Shown here: piece after piece, positions 3,922-49,087 of the stretch
How the letters are laid out: every line of letters starts with the position of its first letter
How positions within the stretch are numbered: the stretch's first letter is position 1
Assembly (NCBI GenBank): GCA_039679545.1
Contig: JBDKUT010000163.1
Coordinates: forward strand, 17,997 to 81,996
Reading direction: 5' to 3'
DNA length: 64,000 nt
Origin: Thermotogota bacterium
GTDB taxonomy: Bacteria > Bipolaricaulota > Bipolaricaulia > UBA7950 > UBA9294
Program-made: the position numbers and the translations under genes
The notes under the pieces: generated by a model
Databases searched by the model: none
What the model was told of the DNA's origin: nothing
Seen by the model: only the letters and a program-made list of their open reading frames with translations

Positions 3922-5238
3922 ATGAATGCAGGTAGGGTGGTGTCGATTGTCGTTGGATCGCTGCTGATTCTCGTCGCGATCGGGCTTCTGCTGGGCGGCG
4001 GATCGTTCCTCTTTCTGGAAAGCATGTACGCGGACGACGACGGCTTCTTGTCGCTCAACTCGATCACCCTTCATCGCGACACGTTCGCCATTGCCGCGCC
4101 CGCGTCCATTGCAGACGACTGGGCATGGATGTGGATGTCCCCGGCCACGCTCCGCGTCGAGGCTAGGGCCGTCTCGCCACACGGCGGGATCTTCGTCGGC
4201 GTGGCACCCCGCGACAAGGTGGAGGCCTACCTGCAAGGCGTCCCGTACGCGGAGATCGATCAGTTCCGGTTCGGGAGAGGCCCAGGAGACGCGATCGAGT
4301 ATCACGACCGAGCCGGCGGTTCCGTTCCCACGGCGCCGACTTCGCAGTCGTTCTGGCGAGCCGCCGTCACGGGCGAAGGGCCGCAGACGCTTCTCTGGGA
4401 CATCGAGGCCGGCGACTGGGTTCTCGTCGCCATGAACTCCGACGGCTCGCGCGTCGTCGACATCTCCGGCTCGATCGGAGTCAAGGCTCCCTGGCTCCAC
4501 GGCGTCGGAATCGGGCTGCTCGTGGCCGGCCTGATTCTCCTCGCCATCGGCCTCGCCCTCGTTCTCTTCGTCGCGCGGCGCGTGCGCGCCGTGCCGTCCG
4601 CCGATCAGGCGGTCTCACCCACGGAACCGTTCCCATCGGGGACCTTCCCGCTCACCTTCCGAGCTGAGAAAGACGACGCCCTCTCCCCGGCGCTCTGGCT
4701 CGTCAAGTGGTTCCTCCTGATCCCGCACTGCGTCGTCCTCGGCTTCCTCTTCGTCGGGTTCGCGGTGTCGTGGCTCGTGTCCCTCTTCGCGATCCTGTTC
4801 ACCGGCCGGTACCCGCGGGGGTTGTTCGACTACAACGTTGGCGTTCTCCGCTGGGCTTGGCGCGTCGGCTACTACGGATACCAGGCACTGGCAACAGACC
4901 GCTACCCGCCGTTCACGCTCCACGCCGGCGGCTATCCCGCAGACCTCGATGTGGTTTACCCCGAGCGGCTCTCGCCGGGCCTCGTCCTCGTCAAGTGGTG
5001 GCTTCTCGCCATCCCGCACTACGTGGTCGTGGCGTTCCTGCAGGGAGGAGCAGGCGTGTGGCGCATCGGCCTAGTCCCCATCCTGTCCGTCTTCGCCGGC
5101 GTGATGCTCCTCTTCACGGGCAGGTACCCCGAGGACCTCAGGCGCCTGATCGTGGGCATGGACCGCTGGACGTACCGAGTCTTCGCCTACGCGGCGCTCT
5201 TGACCGACGCGTACCCGCCGTTCCGGCTCGATGAATAG
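3922..5238 (+). CDS. Membrane protein with extracytoplasmic N-domain and two tandem DUF4389 modules
   Basis: TM helix then ~190 aa, then two repeats each containing FTGRYP...RW..RV..Y...LTDxYPPF; AGGAGGGAG RBS before ATG 3922. Confidence 0.7.
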   Translation: MNAGRVVSIVVGSLLILVAIGLLLGGGSFLFLESMYADDDGFLSLNSITLHRDTFAIAAPASIADDWAWMWMSPATLRVEARAVSPHGGIFVGVAPRDKVEAYLQGVPYAEIDQFRFGRGPGDAIEYHDRAGGSVPTAPTSQSFWRAAVTGEGPQTLLWDIEAGDWVLVAMNSDGSRVVDISGSIGVKAPWLHGVGIGLLVAGLILLAIGLALVLFVARRVRAVPSADQAVSPTEPFPSGTFPLTFRAEKDDALSPALWLVKWFLLIPHCVVLGFLFVGFAVSWLVSLFAILFTGRYPRGLFDYNVGVLRWAWRVGYYGYQALATDRYPPFTLHAGGYPADLDVVYPERLSPGLVLVKWWLLAIPHYVVVAFLQGGAGVWRIGLVPILSVFAGVMLLFTGRYPEDLRRLIVGMDRWTYRVFAYAALLTDAYPPFRLDE

Positions 5239-17524: not shown

Positions 17525-18351
17525 GTCTGGCACCGCGGGCAGACGTAACAGGACCCGCCGAGGTACTGCGTCTTCGCGATCGGAGTGCCGCAGGTCGGAC
17601 ACGGCCGCCCGGCCGCGCGGCCGTCGAGGAGGGGCACGTAGCGCCCGGGTTCGTCGAAGAGATCCCGTTCGGTGTCACGCCCGCCGAGGTTCGCCGCCTC
17701 TTGGAGCGTCTGGCGAAGCGCGCGGTACAACGCCGCCCTCTCCTCCGGCGAGAGGCTCGACACCTTGCGCTTGGGGCTCAAGCGCGCGCGGAACAGGACG
17801 TCCTGCAGGTACCCATTCCCGATTCCCGCGACGTTCGGCGAGTGCGTCAAGAAGGCCTTGATCGGTTTGTCCTGGCCCGCCGCGTGGCGATCTAGCCGCT
17901 CGAAGAACGCAGCCTCCGTGAACCCGGCGTCGAGCGGCGTAAACGCGAGGGTCCCCGCGTAGGGATGCCGGACGATCTCATCCTGTGTGAGCACGCCGAG
18001 GAAACCCCACATTTGGATCGCGAGCGAGAAGTGCGACCCGTCGTCGAACTCCGCGATCCAGTGTCGCTTGGCGGGAATCGGCGTCCCCGCGGGGTGGAAG
18101 AGAAGGCGCCCGCCGAACTCGCCGAACAGGAGCGTCCGCCCGTCATCCAGGCTACAGAAGATCCACCGCCCGCGGGAAGTTGCCTCCTCGATACGGCGGC
18201 CCGCCAGGGCGCGTTCGAAGGCGGGCGTGTCGGGCGAAAGGAAGAGGAACTTGGGACGTCCGGCTGGCACTTCCACACGCACGATCGTCCTCCCGACAAC
18301 CGTCCCCTCAAGTTGCCGCGCCAGATGGATGACCTCCGGGAGCTCGAACAT
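17521..18351 (-). CDS. Fpg/Nei family DNA glycosylase (formamidopyrimidine-DNA glycosylase-like) with Pro2 replaced by Phe
   Basis: N-terminal MFELPEV, H2TH region, C-terminal zinc finger CPTCG...CYVCPRC; GGAGG RBS 5 nt before ATG 18351. Confidence 0.85.
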   Translation of the reverse strand: MFELPEVIHLARQLEGTVVGRTIVRVEVPAGRPKFLFLSPDTPAFERALAGRRIEEATSRGRWIFCSLDDGRTLLFGEFGGRLLFHPAGTPIPAKRHWIAEFDDGSHFSLAIQMWGFLGVLTQDEIVRHPYAGTLAFTPLDAGFTEAAFFERLDRHAAGQDKPIKAFLTHSPNVAGIGNGYLQDVLFRARLSPKRKVSSLSPEERAALYRALRQTLQEAANLGGRDTERDLFDEPGRYVPLLDGRAAGRPCPTCGTPIAKTQYLGGSCYVCPRCQT

Positions 18352-18900: not shown

Positions 18901-20925
18901 ATGGCTCACGATTCCTGGCTTGACGAACTGAATCCCGCACAGCGCGCCGCCGTCACGCACGGCGCTGGCCCGCTGCTCGTCGTGGCGGGTGCCGGCACCG
19001 GCAAGACGAAGACCCTCGCCTATCGCGTCGCCTACCTGATCTCGCAAGGCGTCGACCCAGGGCGGATTCTCCTCCTCACGTTCACGCGCCGTGCGGCGCA
19101 GGAGATGCTTGAGCGCGCGTCAACCATCGTCGCTCGCGGTGCCTCGTCGGCAGGACGGGTCTGGGGAGGCACGTTCCACTCGATGGCCCACCGCCTGCTC
19201 CGGCTCTACGCTCCGTCTATCGGGATCGCCCGTGACTTCACCGTCCTCGATCAGGGCGATGCAGAGAACCTGATCCACTTCATCCGCCACGAGATGGGCC
19301 TCCACGAGAAGGAAAAGCGATTCCCTCGAAAGGGAACGTGTCTCGCCATTTACTCGCGCTGCGTGAACTCCGGTGACGACCTCAAGGCCGTCCTCGAGCG
19401 CGACTTCCCGTGGTGCGATGAATGGGAAGAGGAGCTCCGGACGCTGTTCAGGAAGTACGTCGTCCGCAAGCAGGATCGAAGCGTCCTCGATTATGACGAC
19501 CTCCTCCTGTACTGGATGGCTCTGCTCGACGTCCCGCAGCTGGCCGACGAGATCGGCGGACGGTTCGATCACGTTCTCGTGGACGAGTACCAGGACACGA
19601 ACATCGTGCAGGCGCGGATTCTCTTCGGGATGCGCAAGACGTGCCGCAACCTCATGGTCGTCGGCGATGACGCCCAGAGCATCTATGCGTTCCGCGGCGC
19701 CACGGTGCGCAACATGCTCGATTTCCCAGCGCAGTTCCCGGGAGCGACGATCGTCAAGCTTGAGCAGAACTACCGATCCGTCCTCCCGATCCTCGACACG
19801 GCGAATCGCCTGATCGCCGGGGCAAGCGAACGATTCGTCAAGGACCTCTGGTCGGAACGTCGGAGCACGACCCGACCGAAGCTCGTCACCTGCAAGGACG
19901 CCGCCGAGCAGGACGAGTACGTCGTCGACGCCGTGCTTCGGCACTACGAGGAAGGCATTCCCCTCCGCCGCCAGGCGATCCTCTTCCGCGCTGCCCACCT
20001 CTCCGACACACTCGAGATCGAGCTCGCGCGGCGGAACATCCCGTACCACAAGTACGGCGGGCTCCGTTTTCTCGAAGCCGCTCACGTGAAGGACCTACTC
20101 GCCTTTCTCCGCGTGCTTGAGAATCCTCGCGACGAGCTGGCGTGGTTCCGCATCCTTGAACTTCTGGAGGGAGTCGGTCCGACAACGGCGTCACACGTCG
20201 TCGAGCACGTCGGACAGAGCGGCAATGACCCGCGTGTTGTTCGCTCGTTCGGCGGCTCTGCCGCCGCGCGTGCCGGTCTCGCCGACCTCGCCGATGTCTT
20301 CGACGACCTCGTCCCGCTCGGACCGAAGAACCCCGAGGCGCAGATTGAGCGGATCCGACGCTTCTATGACCCCGTGTTCGAGAGAACGTATGAGAACCCG
20401 GTTGTTCGGGTCCGCGACCTGATCAGTCTTGAGCAGATTGCCGGGGGATACCGCTCACGACACCAGTTCCTCGCCGACGTTCAACTCGACCCGCCGACCT
20501 CAACGAGCGATCTCGCCGGAGCCCCCCACCTGGACGAGGATTGGCTCGTTTTGTCGACGATCCACTCGGCCAAGGGGTGCGAGTGGGACGTCGTCTACCT
20601 CATCCACGCCGCCGATGGATTCCTCCCGTCCGACCTCTCGACCGGCTCGCAGGATGAGATTGAGGAGGAGCGCCGCCTCGTCTACGTAGCGCTCACCCGA
20701 GCGAAGGATCACCTCTACATCACGTGGCCTCTGCGCTACTACCACAAGTGGTACGCGCTCGGTGACGACCACGGCTACGCCCAGCTCTGTCGCTTCTTCA
20801 CCCCAGACGTGCTCGACACGATCGACAACGTTGCACTCGCGGCACCCAAAGAGAGGGACGACGGAGGATCGTTCTACGACGTCGACGCGGACGTACGGCA
20901 GCGGATGCGTGACATGTGGGAGTAG
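18901..20925 (+). CDS. UvrD/PcrA/Rep family ATP-dependent DNA helicase
   Basis: Helicase motifs AGAGTGKT (Walker A), DEYQDT, VGDDAQSIY, C-terminal VALTRAK; 675 aa from ATG 18901. Confidence 0.9.
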   Translation: MAHDSWLDELNPAQRAAVTHGAGPLLVVAGAGTGKTKTLAYRVAYLISQGVDPGRILLLTFTRRAAQEMLERASTIVARGASSAGRVWGGTFHSMAHRLLRLYAPSIGIARDFTVLDQGDAENLIHFIRHEMGLHEKEKRFPRKGTCLAIYSRCVNSGDDLKAVLERDFPWCDEWEEELRTLFRKYVVRKQDRSVLDYDDLLLYWMALLDVPQLADEIGGRFDHVLVDEYQDTNIVQARILFGMRKTCRNLMVVGDDAQSIYAFRGATVRNMLDFPAQFPGATIVKLEQNYRSVLPILDTANRLIAGASERFVKDLWSERRSTTRPKLVTCKDAAEQDEYVVDAVLRHYEEGIPLRRQAILFRAAHLSDTLEIELARRNIPYHKYGGLRFLEAAHVKDLLAFLRVLENPRDELAWFRILELLEGVGPTTASHVVEHVGQSGNDPRVVRSFGGSAAARAGLADLADVFDDLVPLGPKNPEAQIERIRRFYDPVFERTYENPVVRVRDLISLEQIAGGYRSRHQFLADVQLDPPTSTSDLAGAPHLDEDWLVLSTIHSAKGCEWDVVYLIHAADGFLPSDLSTGSQDEIEEERRLVYVALTRAKDHLYITWPLRYYHKWYALGDDHGYAQLCRFFTPDVLDTIDNVALAAPKERDDGGSFYDVDADVRQRMRDMWE

Positions 20926-21016
20926 CCAGTTCTGTGGGCGACGCCGGCCCTCCGAGGAGTGAGAGCCTCGAGCGCGCCTGTTCCATTCCATTGGGTTGTA
21001 GCGACATGCGGCGGTA

Positions 21017-21105
21017 TTGACGAGGACCGGCCTCGGATTATAATGGCAACGATTTCGGAAAACGATACACCTTAGAACTGAACAGCGCGAAAACGTTTTC
21101 CGAAA
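21017..21105 (+). promoter_or_regulatory. Sigma70-type promoter TTGACG-16-TATAAT plus LacI-family operator (tttcggaaaacg ... palindrome GAAAACGTTTTC), copy 1
   Basis: -35 ~21017-21022, -10 ~21039-21044; 12-mer at 21053-21064 and its reverse complement at 21094-21105; element duplicated at 27073-27161. Confidence 0.6.
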
Positions 21106-21111
21106 CAGCCC

Positions 21112-21402
21112 ATGAACCGACGAGAGCCGAGGAAGCGAGCCACAGTCCGCGACGTCGCACTTCGCGCCAGTGTATCCATCGGCAACGTCTCCCGAGTGAT
21201 CAACTACGGTGTCTCCTCCCAAGTGCACGACACGACGCTCACGCGTCTGACCCAGGGTGCATATCAACTCACGCGATCCACAATTACAGGAGACACCCCG
21301 CAAGCACGAGCGATACGAAAACGCTGCCCGTGCAGCAAGGGAGGTGGTCGCAGAGCCAATGCGCTTGGTGCATTACGTGATGATAATGTCATATACATTT
21401 AA
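21112..21402 (+). pseudogene. LacI-family regulator remnant retaining only the HTH headpiece (first ~47 codons homologous to the intact paralog at 27168)
   Basis: MNRREPRKRATVRDVALRASVSIGNVSRVIN...SSQVHDTT aligns with the 27168 gene; remainder of ORF unrelated, ligand-binding domain absent. Confidence 0.55.
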
Positions 21403-21413
21403 AGGAGGTTGCG

Positions 21414-23000
21414 GTGGTCATTAGGCGTAAGCGCGTGTACGTCGCAGTTCTCGTAGGAGCGCTGTCCTTGTTGCTCTATGGGACGCCTCTGCTCGCTAGT
21501 ACTCCTGCAGACACCTTGGTCGTTGGAACCTTGCAGGAGATCTCTCTTGTGGACCCATCTATCGACTACAGCTTCACCGGCGGGCCCATCTTCCCAGCTG
21601 CGTATGAGCGCCTCGTCACCTTCAATAGCCACACCGGGAAGGTTGAGCCTGAGCTAGCCGTCAGTTGGGACATATCGGAGGACGGCACGGTCTACACCTT
21701 CAACGTGCGGCAGGGAGTGCAGTTTCACGATGGGTCAGCCCTCAACGCGGAATCTGTCAAGATCGCGTTTGACCGAACGATGAAGATCAACAGGGGACCG
21801 GCATGGATGCTGCGCGACTACGTCAAGGAAGTCGCTGTCGTCTCACCCTACGTCGTGCAGATTACTCTGAAGGCTCCGTTCGGCCCCTTCTTGAAGGTGC
21901 TGACCTCCTCTTGGGGTATGTCGATCATGAGCCCGAAAGCCTTGGCCGATCATGAGGAAGCGGGCGATCTCGCGCAAGGCTGGTTCCACGACAATATGTG
22001 CGGCACGGGACCGTACAAACTCGTCAGCTGGACGAAGGGCCAACAGATGGTGTTCGAGAAGTTCGACGCATATTGGCGCGGATGGGACGGGAACCATGTT
22101 GACCGAGTCATCGTGCGGGTGGTCCCTGACCCTACGACCTTGGTCATGATGCTTCGAAACGCTGATATAGACATCGCCTCGTACGGGCTGGTTTCCGAGT
22201 TAGGACCAAGCCTCGAGGGTGCCCCCCACTTGGTCACAGAGTCATACGAGACCTACACAACGGAAGCCGCTTTCATGAACACGACACGCGCCCCTCTTGA
22301 CGACGTCAGAGTGCGCCGAGCCATGTCGTACTCATTCCCCTACGAGGGAGCCTTGCAGGCCTATGGCGGCTACGCGGAGCGCTTGATTGGCCAATTGCCG
22401 CCCTCCTTGCCTGGTTTTGATCCCAACAGTCAGGTCTATCATCAAGACCTGGCCCTGGCCAAGAAACTGCTCACGGAAGCAGGAATCAATGAGGGTAGCC
22501 TGGCCTTGGAGTGCACGTGGGTTACTGAACAGCCAACCGGTGGAAGAATCGCCGAGCTCTGGCAACAGGATCTGGCAACGATCGGAGTGACCCTCAAGCT
22601 GACCGAGGTGAACGCTGCCGGCGGTTGGCTCCGAATATCCAGCCCGGAGACAACGGCTGACTTCACGATCACGAGGTGGGGAGTCGACTACCCTGACGCT
22701 CTGTCCAATCTGCTGCCTCTATACAAGAGCGATCTCACACCTGACAAAGGCGGGTACAACATCGGGCGATACAGCAATCCCTACGTGGATCAGCTCCTCA
22801 TCCAAGCCTCTCAGGAGGCGAATGTAGAAAAGGCAGTGCTCCTGGAGCAAGAAGTTCAACGCTACATCACGGACGATGCCCCGTCCATCTTCATCGTTGC
22901 AGTACCGCAGCTTGTCTGCTATCAGGACACCGTCAAGGGGTTTGTCTACGACCCGGGCTACTTCAGCTCCTTCAACCTCTATAACATGTACAAGGAGTAG
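21414..23000 (+). CDS. ABC transporter substrate-binding protein, family 5 (peptide/nickel/opine type)
   Basis: Signal peptide, SBP_bac_5 pattern; ~60% identical to paralog 28295..29854; AAAGGAGG RBS before GTG. Confidence 0.9.
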   Translation: MVIRRKRVYVAVLVGALSLLLYGTPLLASTPADTLVVGTLQEISLVDPSIDYSFTGGPIFPAAYERLVTFNSHTGKVEPELAVSWDISEDGTVYTFNVRQGVQFHDGSALNAESVKIAFDRTMKINRGPAWMLRDYVKEVAVVSPYVVQITLKAPFGPFLKVLTSSWGMSIMSPKALADHEEAGDLAQGWFHDNMCGTGPYKLVSWTKGQQMVFEKFDAYWRGWDGNHVDRVIVRVVPDPTTLVMMLRNADIDIASYGLVSELGPSLEGAPHLVTESYETYTTEAAFMNTTRAPLDDVRVRRAMSYSFPYEGALQAYGGYAERLIGQLPPSLPGFDPNSQVYHQDLALAKKLLTEAGINEGSLALECTWVTEQPTGGRIAELWQQDLATIGVTLKLTEVNAAGGWLRISSPETTADFTITRWGVDYPDALSNLLPLYKSDLTPDKGGYNIGRYSNPYVDQLLIQASQEANVEKAVLLEQEVQRYITDDAPSIFIVAVPQLVCYQDTVKGFVYDPGYFSSFNLYNMYKE

Positions 23001-23010
23001 TTTCTTCTTT

Positions 23011-23040
23011 CCCCCTGCGGTGCCTGCGCACCGCAGGGGG
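23011..23040 (+). other. Intercistronic perfect 13-bp stem-loop (ccccctgcggtgc-ctgc-gcaccgcaggggg) between SBP and permease genes
   Basis: Read directly from sequence; no T-tract downstream on + strand, so likely mRNA-stabilising/attenuating rather than a full terminator. Confidence 0.6.
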
Positions 23041-23053
23041 CCCATTCGACATC

Positions 23054-24067
23054 ATGGCCTACGTCATCTACGTCCTGAAGAGATGCGCTCTGCTGCTGCT
23101 CGTGATCCTTGGGGTCGTGACACTGACCTTTTTCGTATCTCACGTGCTGCCTGCGGATCCCGCCAGACTCAGCGGCGGGATCCGTGCTAGACCGGAACAG
23201 GTCGAAGCCCTTAGGGCAAAACTGAACCTCGACAAGCCCATACTCACGCAGTATTGGCTGTATCTTAGGGGACTGTCGAGAGGCGACTTGGGTACCTCGG
23301 TTCGCACGGAGCAACCAGTGAGTAGAGATCTTCTCACCTACTTTCCCGCTACTCTTGAGTTGACGTTCTCTGCGGTGATGCTTGCCATGTGCGTCGGTAT
23401 CCCGCTCGGAGTCCTTTCGGCCACCTCAAGAAGACGCTTCTTCGACTTCGGTGTCAGGACCTTCTCTGTTGGCGCTGTCTCTATACCCTCGTTCTGGCTT
23501 GGCCTGATGCTTCAACTGGTGTTCTACATGAACCTCAACCTGCTGCCTTGCCAAGGACGCCTCAGCCCCTTTGTCGCCCCTCCCAGCCACACTACCGGCC
23601 TGTACGTTCTAGATAGTCTCTTGGCTTGGAACGGTGCAGCCCTGGTCAACTCTCTGCAGCACCTCGTTCTGCCCACGCTGGCCTTAGGTGCTGGATCACT
23701 TGCAGTCATGACACGAATGACGCGGTCCAGCGTACTTGAGGTTCTTCGTACTGACTATGTTCAGACAGCGTGGGCGAAGGGGCTCTCGAAACAGGCCGTT
23801 CTCCTCAAGCATGTGCTTCGGAACGCTCTCCTGGCAATATCCACCGTGATAGGCCTTCAAATCGGCGCTCTTCTTGCAGGATCTATCCCCATCGAAGTCG
23901 TGTTCTCCTGGCCTGGTGTTGGCTCCTACGCTGCGAAAGCCATCACGTTTGTGGATTTCAACGCCATTCTCGGGGTCACCATCATCAGCGCGGTGGCATA
24001 TGCAGTGCTGAATCTCATGATCGATCTGCTGTACTTGTCAATTGACCCGCGTATTAGGTATGTCTAG
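23054..24067 (+). CDS. ABC transporter permease (DppB/OppB-like)
   Basis: 6-TM BPD_transp_1 pattern; paralog of 29924..30928. Confidence 0.9.
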   Translation: MAYVIYVLKRCALLLLVILGVVTLTFFVSHVLPADPARLSGGIRARPEQVEALRAKLNLDKPILTQYWLYLRGLSRGDLGTSVRTEQPVSRDLLTYFPATLELTFSAVMLAMCVGIPLGVLSATSRRRFFDFGVRTFSVGAVSIPSFWLGLMLQLVFYMNLNLLPCQGRLSPFVAPPSHTTGLYVLDSLLAWNGAALVNSLQHLVLPTLALGAGSLAVMTRMTRSSVLEVLRTDYVQTAWAKGLSKQAVLLKHVLRNALLAISTVIGLQIGALLAGSIPIEVVFSWPGVGSYAAKAITFVDFNAILGVTIISAVAYAVLNLMIDLLYLSIDPRIRYV

Positions 24068-24457
24068 CGCGCCTGACTCCATGCGAAAAACCGGCAGCCA
24101 ACCAGCCAAACATAGGCCAGCGGTTCTCGGTCGCCTAGGCCTCCGCCCTCTATTGTTGTGTTTTCTGCAACGGGGTTGCGTGGGCCTAGAGGGATCGATG
24201 TGGCTGATCCTCGACTATGACTGGCTCCGACGCTGGGCCGTGGCGTTCGGGTGCGCGAAGCGCCTCATGCGGACTGGGACACAGCGAGTGCTGCCCGGCT
24301 GCGAATCCGACATGTCATGGCGCATCCGGGCGGCGCCTGACCCTGCACGCCGCATCGCCGATAGCCAACCGAGAAGCCCAGTCCCCGCAACGGTCACGCC
24401 GCCACAATGGAGGTCCGCCGAGTGATCAGGAAGAGCTGCTACCTAGCCCGCAAGCTG

Positions 24458-25294
24458 ATGAGCGTCCAGCGGGTCATCTCCAAGGATGCAATCGGCGTAG
24501 TGGGAGCATCGATATGTGTGCTCATGCTGGGCATTGCGCTGCTTGCCCCGCACATTGCGCCCTACAATCCTTTGGCAGCGGACATGAAGATCCGGCTAGT
24601 CGCTCCGTGCGCTGCGCATGTCATGGGAACGGATGAACTGGGCCGAGACGTCCTTTCTCGGGTGATCTACGGCTCTCGGATCTCACTGCTCGTATCGATT
24701 TCGGTTGTCTCTATCGCGTTCCTCGCCGGGGTCCTCTTGGGCGCTGTCAGTGGCTTCTTTGGCGGCTGGGTCGACAACCTCATCATGCGGGTGACAGATG
24801 TCTTCCTTGCGTTCCCCGCATTGATGCTGGCGATGGTTGTTGCGTTCGCCTTCGGTCCCGGAATCCGTTCAACCGTTCTGGCGATGTCGGTTGTCTGGTG
24901 GCCCTGGTATGCACGGCTGGTGCGGGCTTCTGCTCTCTCCATTAGGGAGCACACATTCGTTGAAGCCGCTCGTGCTACTGGTGTTTCGAGGGGGGGCATC
25001 CTCTTCCGCCACATACTCCCAAACTGCCTCGCTTCGTCTCTCGTGCAGGCGACGTTGGATATGGGGTATGCCATCCTTACGACAGCGACTCTGAGTTTTC
25101 TGGGCCTCGGCGCGCAGCCCCCAACCCCCGAATGGGGATCAATGATCAACCAGTCACGATCGTATCTTCTGGTCGCGTGGTGGACAATTACGTTTCCAGG
25201 CATAGGCATCTTCATCACAGTGCTCGGGATCAATCTCCTCGGAGATGCCGTTCGGGATTTCATGGACCCGAAACTGCGCCATGTCAGGAACTGA
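24458..25294 (+). CDS. ABC transporter permease (DppC/OppC-like)
   Basis: Paralog of 30941..31792; start set at MSVQRV (ORF extends to 24407). Confidence 0.85.
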   Translation: MSVQRVISKDAIGVVGASICVLMLGIALLAPHIAPYNPLAADMKIRLVAPCAAHVMGTDELGRDVLSRVIYGSRISLLVSISVVSIAFLAGVLLGAVSGFFGGWVDNLIMRVTDVFLAFPALMLAMVVAFAFGPGIRSTVLAMSVVWWPWYARLVRASALSIREHTFVEAARATGVSRGGILFRHILPNCLASSLVQATLDMGYAILTTATLSFLGLGAQPPTPEWGSMINQSRSYLLVAWWTITFPGIGIFITVLGINLLGDAVRDFMDPKLRHVRN

Positions 25295-25306
25295 GAATGG
25301 AGGACC

Positions 25307-26359
25307 ATGATGGCAGAACCAAGATGGAGTGACTATTCTGGTGTTGTGCACGTCCACTCTACGTGTTCTGATGGCTTGGGTTCGATGGAACAGATCATCG
25401 ATGCGGCGTGTGCGGAGCACCTGGATTACCTGATTACTACGGATCACAACACGCTGGCACCAAGGCACCATGAAGGATGGCACGGCGATACCCTCGTCCT
25501 GGTAGAAGAGGAAGTCACTCAACCCGCCAACCATCTCTTGGCTTTGAACATCCGCGATGAGATCGTTCCGCCAATTAGCCCACAGCAATCGATCGACGCA
25601 GTGCTCGCACAGGGGGGGCTCGCTTTCATGGCCCATCCCTTCTATCAGGGGAGCAAACTTCTCGGCGATCCACCGATCCCCTGGACTGATTGGAAGGCGA
25701 CTGGCTTCACCGGGATGGAGATCTGGAACTTCACGGCGGAATTGTATGAGAGCCTCTCGGAAGAGAAGGAGCTGCGACCGCTCGAGACGTATCGTGCGCT
25801 GATGCGGCCTAAAGCAGAGGTGTTGAGAACATGGGACCGGCTTCAGCAAGAACGCCGCGTTGTAGGCCTTGCTGGGCTTGATGCTCATGCGGAGCAGATC
25901 GTGCAAGGCGGAGAGAGAGTGACTCTATTGCCTTACGCAACGATATTCCGCACTCTCCGCATGCATGTACTCCTTGAGCATCCATTCACCGGTAGCCTGC
26001 CAGATGACAGACGAGCTGTCTATGCGGCTCTACGAGACGGTCATGGTTATATCGCCTTCGAATACGAGTCCCCAGTAGACTCCTTCACCTTTGCGGCCGT
26101 TGACAGAACGGGAGCAATTGCAGGGGTGATGGGCGATGAGTTCGGATGGAAGCCTGGCATGCGTTTGTCCATCGCACTCCCCAGACCAGCAGCAATCAGG
26201 GTCATCCGGAATGGAGAAACGCTCGAAGAGGTCTGCGGCCCTTCACTCCTTCTTTCTGTTGAAGAGGACGGCTGCTATCGCGTAGAGGTCCAGCGGGACG
26301 CTCTCCCGTGGATAGTGTCCAACCCCATATACATTCGAAATGGGCGCTCCTCAACTTGA
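25307..26359 (+). CDS. PHP-domain metal-dependent phosphoesterase
   Basis: N-terminal HVHSTCSDG...TDHN PHP motifs; GGAGGA RBS; present only in copy 1 of the duplicated operon. Confidence 0.8.
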   Translation: MMAEPRWSDYSGVVHVHSTCSDGLGSMEQIIDAACAEHLDYLITTDHNTLAPRHHEGWHGDTLVLVEEEVTQPANHLLALNIRDEIVPPISPQQSIDAVLAQGGLAFMAHPFYQGSKLLGDPPIPWTDWKATGFTGMEIWNFTAELYESLSEEKELRPLETYRALMRPKAEVLRTWDRLQQERRVVGLAGLDAHAEQIVQGGERVTLLPYATIFRTLRMHVLLEHPFTGSLPDDRRAVYAALRDGHGYIAFEYESPVDSFTFAAVDRTGAIAGVMGDEFGWKPGMRLSIALPRPAAIRVIRNGETLEEVCGPSLLLSVEEDGCYRVEVQRDALPWIVSNPIYIRNGRSST

Positions 26360-43985: not shown

Positions 43986-44576
43986 ATGAAAAGGATAGCA
44001 GGCTTGCTTTGCGTAGCGGTGGTTCTTGCGGTGGCGGGCACGGCGCTCGCCCAGACCGACCTCAGCGTGTTCCCGAGCGGAACAACGAAGATGGTCTACA
44101 AGATGCGAACGGAGGACATGACCCAGCCGATGCCGCTCGAGCTCAGCGTAACCGTGCACGGAGACGGCACGTATACCGTCCGGATGGTGACGGAGGGGAC
44201 CGGCACGGAAGACGAGCTTGGGTCGTTCGGATTCATCGGCGGCATGACCTCCGTCAGCGCCAGCGGTCACGACGTGAGCTACACGTCGCTCCAGGCGCTC
44301 ATGGACCAGCGCAACCGCCTTCAGGAGGGTCAGGAGTATCTCCTCCCCGGCGGCGGCGCGTTCACCAACATCGTGGGCGCGACCATCGCCGGAGTGTGGT
44401 GCCTGCAGGGGACCCTCGTCGATCCGGATAACGCAGACGTGCGGACGACGGTGGCATTCGCCCTGTCCAAACCGGTCTACATCTCGCCCCTCATTCGCGT
44501 CGAGGAGCTGCGCAACGGTCAATGGGTTGAAGTCTTCTCGCTTGAGCTCGTTGAGTACACGGTGACCGGGAGCTAG
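43986..44576 (+). CDS. Secreted hypothetical protein (signal peptide), first gene of MacB-type ABC module
   Basis: MKRIAGLLCVAVVLAVAGTALA signal; GAGAGGAG RBS. Confidence 0.7.
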   Translation: MKRIAGLLCVAVVLAVAGTALAQTDLSVFPSGTTKMVYKMRTEDMTQPMPLELSVTVHGDGTYTVRMVTEGTGTEDELGSFGFIGGMTSVSASGHDVSYTSLQALMDQRNRLQEGQEYLLPGGGAFTNIVGATIAGVWCLQGTLVDPDNADVRTTVAFALSKPVYISPLIRVEELRNGQWVEVFSLELVEYTVTGS

Positions 44577-44578
44577 GC

Positions 44579-45265
44579 ATGGCACTGCTCGATCTTCAGG
44601 GTGTCACCAAGGACTACCCGCTTGGCAGCACGATCGTGAACGCGCTCCGCGGCCTCAACCTCTCCATCGAGAAGGGAGAGATCGTGGCGATCATGGGCCC
44701 GTCGGGATCGGGAAAATCCACGCTGATGCACATCCTCGGCGCGCTCGATGCCCCGACCGACGGGGAGGCACGGCTGGAGGGACAGGACCTCCGCAGCCTC
44801 TCCGAGAACGAGCTGGTGACGCTTCGGGGGAGGAAGGTCGGCTTCGTCTTCCAGACGTTCAACCTGATCCAAACTCTGACGGCGCAGCAGAACGTCGAGC
44901 TCCCGATGACGTTCCTCGGCGCGCGGCGAAGCGCTCGCGCGGAGCGAGCGCGGGCGCTGCTCGCCAAGGTCGGGCTCGCCGAGCGCGTGGGACATCGGCC
45001 GAACGAGCTCTCGGGGGGCGAGCGCCAACGAGTCGCCATCGCCCGCGCGCTGGCCAACGACCCGGAAATCCTCCTCGCCGACGAGCCCACGGGGAACCTC
45101 GACTCGGAGACCGGTGCAACGATCCTACAACTCCTGAAGCAGCTATGCGAGGACGAGGGGAAGACGATGATCCTCATCACCCACGACCCCGACGCCGCCG
45201 CGATCGCGGACCGCATCGTCCGGCTGCGCGACGGTCGCGTCGTCGAGGAGGCGCGCCATGTTTAG
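44579..45265 (+). CDS. ABC transporter ATP-binding protein (MacB/LolD-like)
   Basis: GPSGSGKSTL, LSGGERQRVAIARAL. Confidence 0.9.
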   Translation: MALLDLQGVTKDYPLGSTIVNALRGLNLSIEKGEIVAIMGPSGSGKSTLMHILGALDAPTDGEARLEGQDLRSLSENELVTLRGRKVGFVFQTFNLIQTLTAQQNVELPMTFLGARRSARAERARALLAKVGLAERVGHRPNELSGGERQRVAIARALANDPEILLADEPTGNLDSETGATILQLLKQLCEDEGKTMILITHDPDAAAIADRIVRLRDGRVVEEARHV

Positions 45266-46508
45266 GGATTTTCTCCTGCTCGCCGTGCAGAGCATCACGC
45301 ATCGGAAGCTGCGAAGCGCCCTCTCCGTGGTTGGCGTCTTCATCGGCATCATGGCGGTCGTAGCCTTGCTCACCTTTAGTCTCGGCGTTGAAAAAGCGAT
45401 CAACGATCAGGTCTCGAAGGTGTTTGGTGTTGACACCTTTATGTTGATCCATGAGGATCTCATGACGTCCAGGAATCACTCTAGCGACCTGAAGGGGTTC
45501 GCGCTCGATATCGAGGAGTTGCGGCGCGTAGACGGAGTGAAGACCGTCGCCGCCATCCGACAACGGACCGGGTTCCTCCAAGGGCCGCCCGGCGAGAGCG
45601 GCCAGAGCCAGCAGGGATTCCTGCCTGTGATGGGATTGACGCCTGAGATGTCGACGGAGTTCAAGTCCTTCCTCGGAGATATCGTCATCGAAGAAGGCGG
45701 CCGAGGGATTGAGCCAGGCGACACTCACACCGCGTTGCTCGGGAAGGAGATTGCGGAGCGCCTGAAGGCGAAGGTCGGCGACCAGATCATCATTGCGGGC
45801 GACAAGAGCGCAGAGATCACGGTCACAGTGGTCGGGGTTCTGACCGAGCAGAAGGAAGAGCAAGGGAGCGGATTCGGGTTTAGCACTGGTCCGAGTCTCG
45901 ATACGGTCTACGTCCCCTACGACTCCATGGACATGCTGTGGCCCGAGTCGAACGACGTTGTCTTCACGCTCGTTCGCACCGAACCGGAGCGGGATGTCGA
46001 CGAGGTTGCGGACCGCGTGGAGGCAGCGATGAAGGCGCGCGGATCGAAGGTGTCCGCAATGACCTTCACCGACATTTCGAAGACCATCGGCATGGTCACG
46101 GCAGTCATCAGTGGCTTGTTCGCTGGAATCGCTGGCATCTCCCTCCTCGTCGGCGGCATCGGGGTTATGAACACGATGTTCACCTCTGTGCTCGAGCGGA
46201 CGAAGGAAATCGGAATCATGAAGGCCGTCGGCGCGAAGAATCGCCACGTCCTGGCAGTCTTTCTCATTGAGTCAGGCCTGATGGGCCTAGCCGGCGGAAT
46301 CATCGGGGCGCTGGCGGGCATCGGGCTCGGCGCTGCTGCGACGTGGATTGTCCGCGCGATGTTCGACGTCAGCGTACCGCTCGTCATCAGCCCTATCGTC
46401 GTCGCCATGACGCTTCTAGGGGCCTTCGCACTTGGCGTCGTGGCCGGTTGGTGGCCGGCACGGCGCGGCGCTCGGATGCCGGTGGTGGACGCACTTCGGT
46501 ACGAGTAG
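45258..46508 (+). CDS. ABC transporter permease, FtsX/MacB family
   Basis: N-terminal TM, large periplasmic domain, C-terminal FtsX 3-TM bundle. Confidence 0.9.
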   Translation: MFRDFLLLAVQSITHRKLRSALSVVGVFIGIMAVVALLTFSLGVEKAINDQVSKVFGVDTFMLIHEDLMTSRNHSSDLKGFALDIEELRRVDGVKTVAAIRQRTGFLQGPPGESGQSQQGFLPVMGLTPEMSTEFKSFLGDIVIEEGGRGIEPGDTHTALLGKEIAERLKAKVGDQIIIAGDKSAEITVTVVGVLTEQKEEQGSGFGFSTGPSLDTVYVPYDSMDMLWPESNDVVFTLVRTEPERDVDEVADRVEAAMKARGSKVSAMTFTDISKTIGMVTAVISGLFAGIAGISLLVGGIGVMNTMFTSVLERTKEIGIMKAVGAKNRHVLAVFLIESGLMGLAGGIIGALAGIGLGAAATWIVRAMFDVSVPLVISPIVVAMTLLGAFALGVVAGWWPARRGARMPVVDALRYE

Positions 46509-46622
46509 CCGATTGCGGAAGGACGATCTTCGAGCCGTTGCGATATACGGGCGGCGCGGGAGCCGGATCCGCCGGCGCGGGTCCGGATCCCGCGCGACGT
46601 CCTCGTCGCGTCGCCGGACGAT
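46509..46622 (+). repeat. Imperfect direct repeat A (~80% identical to 47386-47500, which is the 5' end of gene 47393..48394)
   Basis: gacgatcttcgagccgttgcg...gggagccggatccgccggcgcgggtccggatcccgcgcgacgtcctcg vs gacgatctccgagccattgcg...gggagccggacccgccggtgcgggtccggctcctgcgcgacgtcctcg. Confidence 0.6.
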
Positions 46623-46708
46623 CCTCGTCCGTGCGCCTCGTGCGTCAAGCCGTGACTTCTGGACCCGCTACCCGAAGTCAACTACGCTGCGGTGCCCATC
46701 GGCAGGGT

Positions 46709-47269
46709 CTACTTCCCCCTTGCTCCGCCGATGCACCAGAGGTCATCCTGCCCCCACTGCGGATCGAAGCCATCTCCGTACCGATGAAGTGGCTGATAGC
46801 TGCCCTTCAACGGCGGTTCCAGCTTGCTCCCCAACGAGTCCACGTAGTCGAGCAGCTGTAGTGCACCGAGTATGCTTTTCAGTTTGTTCGCGGTTCGGGT
46901 CATAGGCGGCTGATACTGCAGAGCCTTCGCCACGTCGAGCGTCCCGTCGGGCGTCATCACAAGCTGCAGCTCGGCACTCAGCGCTGGCCCTATCACGTAG
47001 TACACAGCGAACGATAGCCCGATCTCGGCCCCCGTGACTACAAGGCCTGCTACCCCGGACGTCAGGGCCGCCGCGCCAAGTGCCGTCAACCCTGTTGTCG
47101 CCCCCTCGGCAATGGCAAAGCCGACGGAGATTGCCGACAGTGCAGTGCTGGCCGCCGCTCCTGGTGTAACGCGAGGTGGTTCCGGCTCAGCTGGTCTTCC
47201 CACACAGCTGACGCTGACAACCAGGGTGCTGCAGAGCACTATGCACCACACGATAGCCTTTCTGTACAT
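46709..47269 (-). CDS. Hypothetical lipoprotein in a lower-GC islet
   Basis: Signal + lipobox-like VSVSC; strong AAGGAGGTG RBS; local GC ~58% vs ~67% flanks. Confidence 0.65.
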   Translation of the reverse strand: MYRKAIVWCIVLCSTLVVSVSCVGRPAEPEPPRVTPGAAASTALSAISVGFAIAEGATTGLTALGAAALTSGVAGLVVTGAEIGLSFAVYYVIGPALSAELQLVMTPDGTLDVAKALQYQPPMTRTANKLKSILGALQLLDYVDSLGSKLEPPLKGSYQPLHRYGDGFDPQWGQDDLWCIGGARGK

Positions 47270-47385
47270 GACTGCACCTCCTTGGTCATCACTATACGTC
47301 TACTTCATGTCATATACTACCACTGAGTGACAACACCGTAGCGCGAGCCTGGCGCATCTACCATTCCACTGGATCCGTAGTACGA

Positions 47386-47500
47386 TTGCGCCATGTTAGC
47401 GCGGGACGATCTCCGAGCCATTGCGGTGCAGGTGCTGCGCCGGGAGCCGGACCCGCCGGTGCGGGTCCGGCTCCTGCGCGACGTCCTCGACGCGCCGATC
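47386..47500 (+). repeat. Imperfect direct repeat B (partner of 46509-46622)
   Basis: See repeat A. Confidence 0.6.
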
Positions 47501-48394
47501 GACGACTCGCGACTCCGAAGTGCCCGCGAGGGGCTCGACGATTCACCTCACGTTCTACTCTTGGTCTCGGAGCAACGCGACGACGGAAGCTGGGGCCGAC
47601 TTCACTCTCGCGACACCCACGCCGCCGCTGCCGTTCCGACGACCGAGTGGGCCGTCGAGCGGGCGGTCGCGCTCGGCGTCGACAGAGACCATCCGATGCT
47701 TCGGAGCGCCGCTGACCATCTCGCCGCTGTCGTCACGGGGCTCGCGGCACCGAGCGACCCTCCGGAACGAAACGACCGCTGGCCGACCGGCGTGGCCCTC
47801 TTCGCGGCGTCCACGCTTGCCCTCGTCGACTCCGAGCACCCGGCGCTCGACCCGGTCTGGGCTCTGTGGCACGAGATCGCCCGGCGCACCTTGGCAGGCG
47901 GAATCTACAATCCGGACGCCGAGGCAGCCGCGCATCGCGACCTCACCGGCGCCTCAGTTCGCGGAACCTACCTGACACTCGAGAATCGCTACGCCGTAAC
48001 CCTGCTCGCCTCCCGCGGCGACCGGATGGATCCCCACGTGCGCGCGGCCCTCTACCGCTGGCTGTGGAACCACCCGAAGGGGCTTGGCTACTTCGAGACT
48101 CCTCCTGCTGTTCCTCCGTCCGGCCGCGCGACAAGCGGTTTCATCGAGCGGTGGATCTGGACGCACGAGATCCTGGCGAGCCTCTCGACGCACGCCGCCG
48201 TGGGGCCGATCCTCGACGCACTTGAAGCCAACCGGCGCAGCGACGGGTTGTGGGACCTTGGCCCTCGCGCGTCGTTCGCATCGGCTCTTCCCCTTTCGGC
48301 GACATGGCGGGCCAAGGACGCACGCGCCGTCGACTGGACGACACGCATCCTCACGCTCGCGTCCCGCTGGCTGGGGAACCTCGCTTCCGCGTAG
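47393..48394 (+). CDS. Hypothetical protein (possible alpha/alpha-toroid, QxxDGSWG-type repeat)
   Basis: High GC3 333-aa ORF; single QRDDGSWG and SDGLWD motifs; no RBS. Confidence 0.6.
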   Translation: MLARDDLRAIAVQVLRREPDPPVRVRLLRDVLDAPIDDSRLRSAREGLDDSPHVLLLVSEQRDDGSWGRLHSRDTHAAAAVPTTEWAVERAVALGVDRDHPMLRSAADHLAAVVTGLAAPSDPPERNDRWPTGVALFAASTLALVDSEHPALDPVWALWHEIARRTLAGGIYNPDAEAAAHRDLTGASVRGTYLTLENRYAVTLLASRGDRMDPHVRAALYRWLWNHPKGLGYFETPPAVPPSGRATSGFIERWIWTHEILASLSTHAAVGPILDALEANRRSDGLWDLGPRASFASALPLSATWRAKDARAVDWTTRILTLASRWLGNLASA

Positions 48395-48432
48395 AGCAAG
48401 AACCTTCTTCCCAACTCCCATGGCGCGACCTC

Positions 48433-48477
48433 TTGACAGAGCGCCGATCGCCTGTAGAATGACTGACCAGTCAGTCA
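48433..48477 (+). promoter_or_regulatory. Consensus sigma70 promoter TTGACA-16-TAGAAT followed by perfect inverted repeat TGACTGAC-CA-GTCAGTCA (candidate TetR operator)
   Basis: Read directly; IR overlaps -10/+1, 20 nt upstream of AAGGAG RBS of TetR gene. Confidence 0.65.
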
Positions 48478-48496
48478 GTAGCAGCTAAGGAGCCAC

Positions 48497-49087
48497 GTGG
48501 ACGACGGCAAGAAGGATCAGATCCGCAAAGCGGCGCTCGCCGTGTTCGCACGGCGCGGCTTTCACGGAACGACGGTGGCCGAGATCGCACAGGAGGCGGG
48601 GATCGCCAAGGGGACGATCTACCTCTACTACGCGAGCAAGGAGGAAATCCTGATCGCCGTCTTCCGCCGCTACATCGATGGGATGCTCGACTTCGTCGAC
48701 GGCCTCCTCGATTCGGCCCTTTCCGTGCCCGACATCCTGAGCGCGTTCGTCAAGAAGCAGATCGACCTGTTCCGCGAGGAGCCCGATCTGATGCGTGTCC
48801 TCAGCCGTCGCTCGCTCCTCGCACTGAGCGACGGCGACGAGCGAATGCTCGAGTTCCAGCGCTACCTGCTCGACCGCATCGCCACCCTGCTCAAGCGCGG
48901 GAAGGTCCTCGGCGAGATGCGCGTGCTCGACGTCCGGATTGCGGCGTGTGCGATGCTCGCGCTGCAAGAGGCCCTGCCGCTCTACCTCACGGTGTACGCG
49001 GAGGACCTGCCGAAGGATGCGCTGGGCCGTGTGACCCGAGAGCTCGCTCAGTTCATGTGGGCGAGCGTTCGAAAGGAGCCCGCATGA
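48497..49087 (+). CDS. TetR/AcrR family transcriptional regulator
   Basis: N-terminal HTH (IRKAALAVFARRGFHGTTVAEIAQEAGIAKGTIYLYY). Confidence 0.9.
   Translation: MDDGKKDQIRKAALAVFARRGFHGTTVAEIAQEAGIAKGTIYLYYASKEEILIAVFRRYIDGMLDFVDGLLDSALSVPDILSAFVKKQIDLFREEPDLMRVLSRRSLLALSDGDERMLEFQRYLLDRIATLLKRGKVLGEMRVLDVRIAACAMLALQEALPLYLTVYAEDLPKDALGRVTRELAQFMWASVRKEPA

Follow-up and report, generated by a model that had tools for sequence, protein, structure and literature searches.

A dead gene start and a putative allelic patch at an ABC-transporter locus of Bipolaricaulota

Described systems and the locus compared with them

Allelic replacement of a cassette by way of conserved flanks occurs at capsule and O-antigen loci, tandem duplications are common, and integrative elements can carry a replacement gene end which restores the gene that they interrupt. 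The target-site duplications of transposons and insertion sequences (IS) have a fixed length, typically 2-14 bp, and are identical when formed. For displaced gene ends in the effector-immunity arrays of Vibrio cholerae type VI secretion system (T6SS) clusters and in Rhs loci (orphan 3' regions), homology-facilitated illegitimate recombination (HFIR) has been proposed (Kirchberger et al., 2017, PMC5361080), and experimental single crossovers of circularised DNA gave duplications of 109-950 bp flanking the insert (PMC3240628). The locus compared here with these systems lies in a stretch of 64,000 nucleotides (the window; positions 17,997 to 81,996 of contig JBDKUT010000163.1, assembly GCA_039679545.1, deposited as a Thermotogota bacterium), where a small gene on the minus strand sits in an islet between two direct repeats, downstream of an ABC-transporter permease gene and upstream of a conserved gene for a protein of 333 amino acids (aa), termed p333. 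It is considered probable (at roughly 0.72) that the left repeat copy is the dead original start of this downstream gene and the right copy its live start, the arrangement being a scar of recombination and not the mark of a mobile element. The features concerned are as follows.

45242-46508, plus strand: class A MacB/FtsX-type permease allele (open reading frame (ORF) 45258-46508, 416 aa), the left part of the exchanged patch.
46501-~46644, plus strand: left repeat copy, a pseudogene stub that corresponds to ~47 codons from the start of the downstream gene and overlaps the permease stop.
46554-46595, plus strand: strong hairpin in the stub with 19-nt arms and a 4-nt loop, ~45 nt after the permease stop (18 pairs in the RNA fold).
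46645-46708, no strand: spacer of 64 nt from the stub end to the small-gene stop, with no detectable homology (p = 0.78 against gene 5' ends).
46709-47269, minus strand: gene of a small secreted or membrane protein (186 aa), the sole supported ORF in the islet.
47270-47392, no strand: divergent intergenic region of 123 nt (52% G+C), shared by the small gene and p333.
47275-47283, minus strand: AAGGAGGTG, the Shine-Dalgarno sequence that serves the small gene, 5 nt upstream of the ATG.
47393-47528, plus strand: live 5' end of p333, which forms the right repeat copy and contains the conserved hairpin 47443-47474.
47393-48394, plus strand: live downstream gene p333 (ORF, 333 aa); 336 aa (p336) in islet-free loci.

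The likeness to the T6SS and Rhs loci would consist in new DNA placed beside a conserved gene with homology on one side only, in a truncated piece of the resident gene left as an orphan, so that direct repeats of a gene end surround the insert, and in a block which then spread between strains by ordinary homologous recombination. The window differs in that its orphan is a 5' end of ~47 codons and not a 3' toxin domain, in that one displacement and not an array is seen, and in that the inserted gene encodes a small membrane protein, lies beside an ABC permease and shows neither a toxin nor an immunity signature; the mechanism is here read from the anatomy of the locus alone. As in a Campbell-type integration, the insert lies between direct repeats of a homologous segment of ~100 bp to 1 kb; unlike such an integration, the window has neither a circular donor nor a plasmid backbone, the insert is a single chromosomal-type gene, and the copies differ in allele type over their whole length instead of being reciprocal hybrids of donor and recipient. 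With cassette replacement the locus shares a divergent core (permease classes 54-60% identical), conserved flanks, sharp switches and the occurrence of the same allele in unrelated backbones, but the segment comprises one permease gene and a 0.9-kb islet and not a multi-gene biosynthetic locus as in the capsule and O-antigen cases. Transposons and integrons resemble it in having direct repeats around a single inserted gene, whereas the repeat in the window is ~100-135 nt long, 73-82% identical and allelic, and homologous islets without a repeat exist. No transposase gene or terminal inverted repeats were found at the islet, the sole supported ORF of which encodes a protein without a family, and no integron features (integrase, attC-type site) were found in the 14 kb around the islet, intI not having been scanned for beyond ±7 kb.

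The dead gene start and the permease patch

The repeat search returned two adjoining blocks, 46521-46560/47404-47443 (spacing 883 nt) and 46557-46621/47441-47505 (spacing 884 nt), which represent one repeat with a 1-nt indel. A reading made from the letters alone (hereafter the sequence-only reading) had described direct repeats of ~115 bp and ~80% identity with the left copy immediately after the FtsX stop, and both parts of this description hold, as blastn between the copies gave 82.4% identity over 102 nt (E 5e-22) and the left copy begins at the permease stop codon. The span which is homologous codon by codon (46510-46644 vs 47393-47528) is 73% identical overall. No third copy was detected in the 64-kb window, and the repeat search found no inverted repeats at the islet ends.

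The left copy is a pseudogene stub, the original 5' end of the conserved gene still in its ancestral position, because its start codon is lost, its frame is shifted and its homology breaks off after ~47 codons. At the ancestral junction the window reads GGTACGAGTAG, then SSRLRKDDLRAVA, in which the start codon at 46501-46503 has changed from ATG to ACG, a substitution that is silent in the permease (TAT to TAC). A 1-nt deletion at ~46557 was identified by three-frame translation and destroys the reading frame. Similarity to the gene 5' end stops at ~46640-46644 in the alignment to 12 islet-free junctions, and the nhmmer profile match of the stub extends to 46644 (E 4e-64). At the other copy, a codon-level alignment puts the new ATG of p333 (47393) opposite ancestral codon 4 (MLARDD... 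vs MSSRLRKDD...). When a hidden Markov model (HMM) of the downstream-gene family was run against six-frame translations from the permease to the live gene, the stub was the sole match, and therefore the remainder of the islet is not a decayed gene copy. On the same result the idea was rejected that the islet derives from a complete duplicate of the downstream gene which decayed, the small gene having been born antisense to it. For annotation, the stub and the ORFs across it should not be taken as genes, and the start of the downstream gene is new.

The genomic context was compared for close and distant relatives of p333, among which are 12 distinct islet-free loci of Bipolaricaulota. In all 12 the MacB/FtsX-type permease gene overlaps p336 (54-98% identical to the protein of the window) through an invariant GGTATGAGTAG, where TAG is the permease stop and the ATG 4 bases earlier is the start of the next gene. 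The islet-free gene encodes 336 aa beginning MSSRL(R/T)(K/R)DD..., and a start of p336 within the permease stop region (TATGAGTAG) is the normal arrangement in the phylum, in which p336 is likely to be translationally coupled to the permease. It had been expected that relatives would show FtsX followed directly by the gene at 47393, and these 12 loci do so, including L001, the flanks of which are 99-100% identical to the window. A further locus, L019, is of the L099 lineage (99.9%) and its contig ends inside the stub, and it was removed from the islet-free count. At a more distant locus (P0033/L100) the permease and the gene are adjacent and there is no islet.

The permease of the window carries the domains PF12704 MacB_PCD (6e-25) and PF02687 FtsX (2e-22), which place it among the MacB/LolCE/FtsX-type permeases, with its NCBIfam MacB and LolCE matches falling under the equivalog cut-offs. 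Its start is overlapped by an ABC ATPase gene (44579-45265). Three allele classes were distinguished, namely class A (416 aa; the window, L017, L018 and L099), class B (421 aa; the majority of loci) and class C (L003). Between classes the permease proteins are 54-60% identical, and in the same genomes the ATPase is 80-98% and the downstream gene 69-97% identical. The class A allele was found in at least three different backbones. The classes look like a long-lived polymorphism moved by recombination. A metagenome scan with the window permease returned only relatives of <=40% identity.

The permease protein of the window is 98% identical to that of L017 (GCA_041302705.1) and 57% to that of L001 (GCA_040960625.1), but for the ATPase in the flank the figures are 85% (L017) and 98% (L001). 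L001 matches the window at 98-100% up to ~45000 and at 99-100% for 7 kb from 47405, with 46-78% DNA identity per 100-nt window over 45200-46500, and it has the ordinary overlapping junction without an islet. L017 is 95-100% identical to the window across 45259-46458 and 67-95% in the flanks. Informative sites switch from L001-type to L017-type at 45241|45245, inside the 3' end of the ATPase gene, a few isolated L017-type sites occurring from 45003 on. On the right, the boundary of the patch falls between 47405 and 47420, as the sequence is L001-type from 47405 and 47413 is the single differing position over the initial 236 nt. The nearest relative thus switches abruptly and reciprocally, as in a mosaic allele. 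The L001 permease is as distant from that of L002 as the L001 and L002 flanks are from each other, and for this reason it looks native to the clade.

On these alignments, the segment 45242-47404 (class A permease, stub and islet) is an allelic patch exchanged by homologous recombination in conserved flanks, because the backbone is 99-100% L001-like while the permease in the patch is 98% L017-like. The sequence-only reading was right that an insertion had taken place, and the recombination-mediated acquisition that it had offered as one possibility is supported by the sharp switches at either end, but the unit is larger than had been supposed and takes in the whole permease from 45242. A second divergent patch between the window and L001 was observed at 48280-48480 (89%, 53% and 94% per successive 100-nt window, with surroundings at 99-100%), covering the 3' end of p333 and the following intergenic DNA; over 48200-48560 the identity is 86% to L017 and 84% to L001.

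The G+C content was also considered, since the islet had been described as a low-G+C insertion (~58% against ~67% in the flanks). The values obtained do not agree with that description: the islet (46623-47385) has 60.6% G+C, with 8.8% of same-size windows equal or lower, and the left flank, i.e., the permease gene, has 60.8% (right flank, 69.7%). In the relatives, all permease alleles have 60-64% and all four homologous small genes 61-62%. Base composition was rejected as a sign of foreign origin on account of this percentile and of the same G+C content in the permeases and small genes of relatives. As the composition is shared by all permease alleles and by the small genes in relatives, that of the islet is typical of membrane proteins in a G+C-rich genome and is not a foreign signature. 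The lowest G+C content of the window is found at ~20500-25900 (down to 55% against a mean of 64.9%), a dip far deeper than that of the islet.

Origin of the stub and islet

Small genes on the minus strand were found at the same junction in L003 (137 aa), L018 (146 aa, class A) and L099 (193 aa, class A). Their products and that of the window form one family, with pairwise E values of 4e-9 (L099-L018), 2e-8 (L003-L018), 8e-7 (L099-L003) and 4e-6 (window-L018). Between lineages the small proteins are 25-35% identical, and the adjacent class A permeases are 83-91% identical. Common to all are a hydrophobic segment at the N-terminus, a hydrophobic middle rich in Gly and Ala, and the motif Y-x-[PS]-P-x-x-R, and each gene is preceded by a GGAGGTG ribosome-binding site. 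The G+C content by codon position is of the coding type (third > first > second) in 4/4 small genes. An islet is present in four of the five loci with a permease that is not class B (class A or C) and in none of the 12 standard loci.

The islets differ in what precedes the small gene. By a nucleotide profile of the 12 islet-free junctions, the stub of L099 is ~110 nt long and that of the window ~140 nt. The L099 stub is an intact ORF of ~60 codons (4133-4320), which starts with an ATG overlapping the permease stop and enters the small gene in antisense from its 3' end; the stub itself ends 4 nt from the small-gene stop codon. In L003 and L018 no stub was found by nhmmer, and there is a clean break at the permease stop. 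Smith-Waterman alignment with dinucleotide shuffles, applied to the spacers for a stub remnant, gave p = 0.15 for L003 and p = 0.04 for L018, the latter being lost after correction for three tests. A search of the divergent intergenic regions for traces of the permease 3' end gave nothing significant after 16 tests.

All four islet-bearing loci have a strong hairpin in the spacer that separates the permease stop from the small gene, and in the two with a stub it is the conserved hairpin of the coding region. In the live copy of the window this hairpin (47438-47479, 15-18 bp) occupies p333 codons ~17-31 (peptide REPDPPVRVRLL). It is kept in the gene start of 16 alleles with 93% of cells paired (alignment A5), and in five sequences one G-C pair is replaced by A-U, a Glu to Lys change being matched by a synonymous Leu change. 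This conservation suggests selection on RNA or DNA structure, confounded by conservation of the protein. The stub hairpin may act as a terminator or stabiliser, and is a candidate for the structure at which the ABC operon ends on its 3' side, opposite the convergent small gene. A scan of 46300-47600 for consensus promoters and terminators found no sigma-70-like site and no T-tract terminator, and an Rfam scan gave chance-level matches only.

Of 25 sites which differ between L001-type and L017-type gene starts, 17 are L017-type in the stub, one is L001-type and seven are of neither type; the live copy is L001-type. The L099 stub was typed in the same manner as L017-type at 20 sites, L001-type at 5 and neither at 2. 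The stub and the live copy accordingly belong to different allele lineages, as judged by these sites. Because the copies carry different alleles (17:1), neither a local duplication followed by divergence nor a target duplication of the transposon type can account for them, and the insertion with a target duplication that had been suggested for the islet is contradicted. The sequence-only reading had itself named the same arrangement without a repeat as a finding that would speak against it, and L003 and L018, whose islets are of this kind and have no detectable repeat, count against the duplication idea.

The favoured interpretation is that the stub-plus-islet would be a hybrid, in which an islet-free allele (permease and gene start) was joined to an islet-bearing allele, the right half of which would have contributed the small gene, the divergent intergenic region and the new start. 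Such a join could have arisen through homology on the permease side and an illegitimate join on the other, i.e., by HFIR, or through a single crossover with a circularised fragment, a route by which the islets lacking a stub would have descended from it through decay of the stub. The permease and the initial ~40 nt of the stub may subsequently have been renewed by conversion tracts that came from islet-free relatives. The unequal lengths of the stubs in the window and L099 fit independent illegitimate joins, and the anatomy would fit HFIR, the permease and stub being continuous with islet-free alleles up to a homology break at ~46644. With regard to a Campbell-type crossover, the stub was found to be L017/L002-type throughout and the live copy L001-type from 47405, a result in which later recombination could have erased a hybrid pattern.

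Several observations weigh against this interpretation. Between the stub and L017 there are 19 differences in 144 nt, and the permease third positions differ by 5% (P = 2e-4), so that the stub would be older than the L017-like permease tract or of another source, which points to at least two events or an unsampled donor. This divergence may be read either as an L017-like conversion tract that ended in an older stub or as a donor outside the sample; 17 of the 19 differences lie beyond 46540 and two in the first 40 nt, a clustering which is not significant (p = 0.07). The origin step is itself reconstructed, there being no close relative with an islet and without a stub to show the join at ~46644 or any microhomology. 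Each edge of the patch falls within ~20 nt of non-homology in spite of differences every few bases there between flanks of the L001 and L017 types, and this is awkward for a direct L017-like donor. The polarity is assigned by parsimony only, and L001 could be the derived form. As for the hairpin, a terminator role is proposed for a structure without a T-tract which is conserved inside live genes as well, and constraint on the protein could explain much of its conservation.

A different account would have the small gene brought into an islet-free locus by one Campbell-type crossover of a small circle carrying a ~140-nt copy of the gene start, so that L003 and L018 represent the same insertion with the stub decayed or deleted, and the stubs of the window and L099 were kept young by overwriting from islet-free relatives. 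This primary duplicative insertion is considered unlikely, though not negligible. Single crossovers of circularised fragments are reported to give flanking duplications (109-950 bp; PMC3240628), the four islets share their right edge with a new start at or next to ancestral codon 4-5, which suggests one origin, and the spacer of L018 can be aligned collinearly with the gene 5' end at borderline significance (p = 0.04). Only two of the 19 differences from L017 fall in the initial 40 nt of the window stub, which would be expected had a conversion tract ended in an older stub. Against it, nhmmer detects no stub in L003 or L018, the spacer match gives p = 0.15 in L003 and that of L018 does not survive correction for three tests, the stub ends differ (~110 vs ~140 nt), the clustering is not significant (p = 0.07), and the source of such a circle is not known.

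The remaining explanations fare far worse. That the junction of the permease and the downstream gene was duplicated in tandem locally, with foreign DNA placed between copies that then diverged where they stood, would suit a single gene flanked by direct repeats of the same orientation, but is very improbable given that the stub is L017/L002-type at 17 of 18 resolvable sites opposite an L001-type live copy, that it is contiguous with a permease allele foreign to the backbone, and that the near-isogenic L001 has neither the duplication nor a class A permease. Equally hard to sustain is a transposon or IS with a target-site duplication, or the remnant of an integrase element or integron cassette which rebuilt the interrupted gene start. 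The insert is indeed flanked by direct repeats, the interrupted gene is restored, and each repeat copy contains a palindrome; this palindrome is nevertheless conserved coding sequence in every allele, the islet-free ones included, and the repeat is ~100-135 nt long with copies that are allelic rather than identical at formation. Moreover, the 0.75-kb islet holds a single small gene and lacks terminal inverted repeats, neither a transposase nor an integrase is present, the surrounding 14 kb (ABC transporter, TetR, MMPL genes and the like) are collinear with L001, the islets of L003 and L018 have no repeat at all, and the small gene is found nowhere else. An assembly artefact, in which two co-occurring strains were joined as a metagenomic chimera, would agree with the source being a metagenome-assembled genome (MAG) and with the mosaic pattern of identity, and is the least credible of all. 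Two further assemblies from separate runs (SRR15035647 and SRR15035648) are 100% identical over 4.6 kb and 1.3 kb including the junctions, and the combination of stub and islet recurs in an independent genome, L099 (with L019, from a different sample). Differences between the parental types occur every 3-10 nt at the left junction, and consequently there is no shared k-mer through which a mis-join could have occurred.

The small gene, its neighbours and the transporter

The sequence-only reading had also described a single minus-strand gene with a strong ribosome-binding site in the islet, and it is present with its Shine-Dalgarno sequence 5 nt upstream of the ATG; the 8-mer AGGAGGTG from this region occurs four times in the window. 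The product has a hydrophobic N-terminus ending VSVS-C22, which by eye fits a permissive lipobox, one or two further hydrophobic segments in the hydropathy profile and the motif YQPPMTR. Its designation as a lipoprotein is uncertain, because this lipobox-like Cys context occurs in the window protein only. The proteins of L003, L018 and L099 have an N-terminal hydrophobic segment without a canonical lipobox (by eye). No Pfam or NCBIfam family was found for the small protein, a word-indexed search of 5.8 billion proteins recovered only the protein itself, and a full HMMER search of 1.8 billion representative proteins yielded no further relatives that were accepted. One borderline Gly/Ala-rich match in the latter search (P0233, E 3e-4) has an unrelated context and was judged to be spurious.

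No Pfam or NCBIfam model matched p333, and a Pfam domain was present in none of its 111 homologues. Its closest relatives are all Candidatus Bipolaricaulota. The AlphaFold2 model (pLDDT, the predicted local distance difference test score, of 93) is confident and all-alpha, and fold and sequence matches are weak (squalene-hopene cyclase, AGE epimerase, AprG), so that p333 may be described, on the model, as a conserved protein resembling an alpha/alpha toroid, the resemblance being weak. The family also occurs in Chloroflexota, Bathyarchaeia, Bacillota and others besides Bipolaricaulota (loci L030-L097) and has a QW-like motif, EQRxDGSWGRLHS; an FtsX-type permease neighbours the gene in Bipolaricaulota only.

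The permease gene and the small gene are now convergent. The overlap with the permease stop having been lost, p333 would no longer be coupled to the permease and would have to be transcribed from a promoter of its own in the 123-nt intergenic region. Recombination between the direct repeats of ~100-135 nt could delete the islet; the window would then be left with an ACG start, while in L099 an intact coupled gene would be rebuilt.

A number of other observations were made in the neighbourhood of the transporter genes. A conserved 196-aa protein with a signal-like N-terminus and no family is encoded at 43986-44576, directly upstream of the ATPase and permease in every locus examined, and is possibly part of the transporter system. 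Downstream, a TetR-family gene (48497-49087), which precedes an MMPL/RND transporter gene, has a near-consensus promoter immediately upstream (TTGACA at 48433-48438, a 16-nt spacer and TG-TAGAAT at 48453-48460). A perfect 18-nt palindrome, TGACTGACCAGTCAGTCA (48460-48477), overlaps this promoter, with ~25-29 nt conserved in L003 and L004-L006, and is probably an autoregulated tetR operator. With respect to taxonomy, NCBI lists the small protein of the window under a 'Thermotogota bacterium' MAG and L022 under 'uncultured Thermotogae', and the close relatives of the locus are all Candidatus Bipolaricaulota/Bipolaricaulis; the Thermotogota and Thermotogae labels are likely to be a taxonomic mislabel or the result of mis-binning.

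The presence of the islet in four of the five class A or C loci and in none of the 12 standard ones is the reason for suggesting that the fast-evolving small protein works specifically with a variant transporter of the MacB/FtsX type, as its partner or its substrate, and is not a passenger, with the permease and small gene forming a block under balanced polymorphism, a suggestion that is speculative and at present doubtful. Were it true, the block would be long-lived, providing for example surface variation under pressure from phages or antagonists, and would be shuffled among Bipolaricaulis strains; the stub would have been exapted for its hairpin as the 3' end of the operon, and the repeats would make the insertion reversible. 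The recombination scar and the allelic patch are both of known kinds and involve no new mechanism, and they offer a well-resolved example in an uncultured phylum (Bipolaricaulota/Acetothermia), in which the locus is evidence for active homologous recombination between fairly divergent lineages. The newer lead is an unannotated, hypervariable small-protein family which is tied to one ABC-transporter locus and associated with divergent permease classes.

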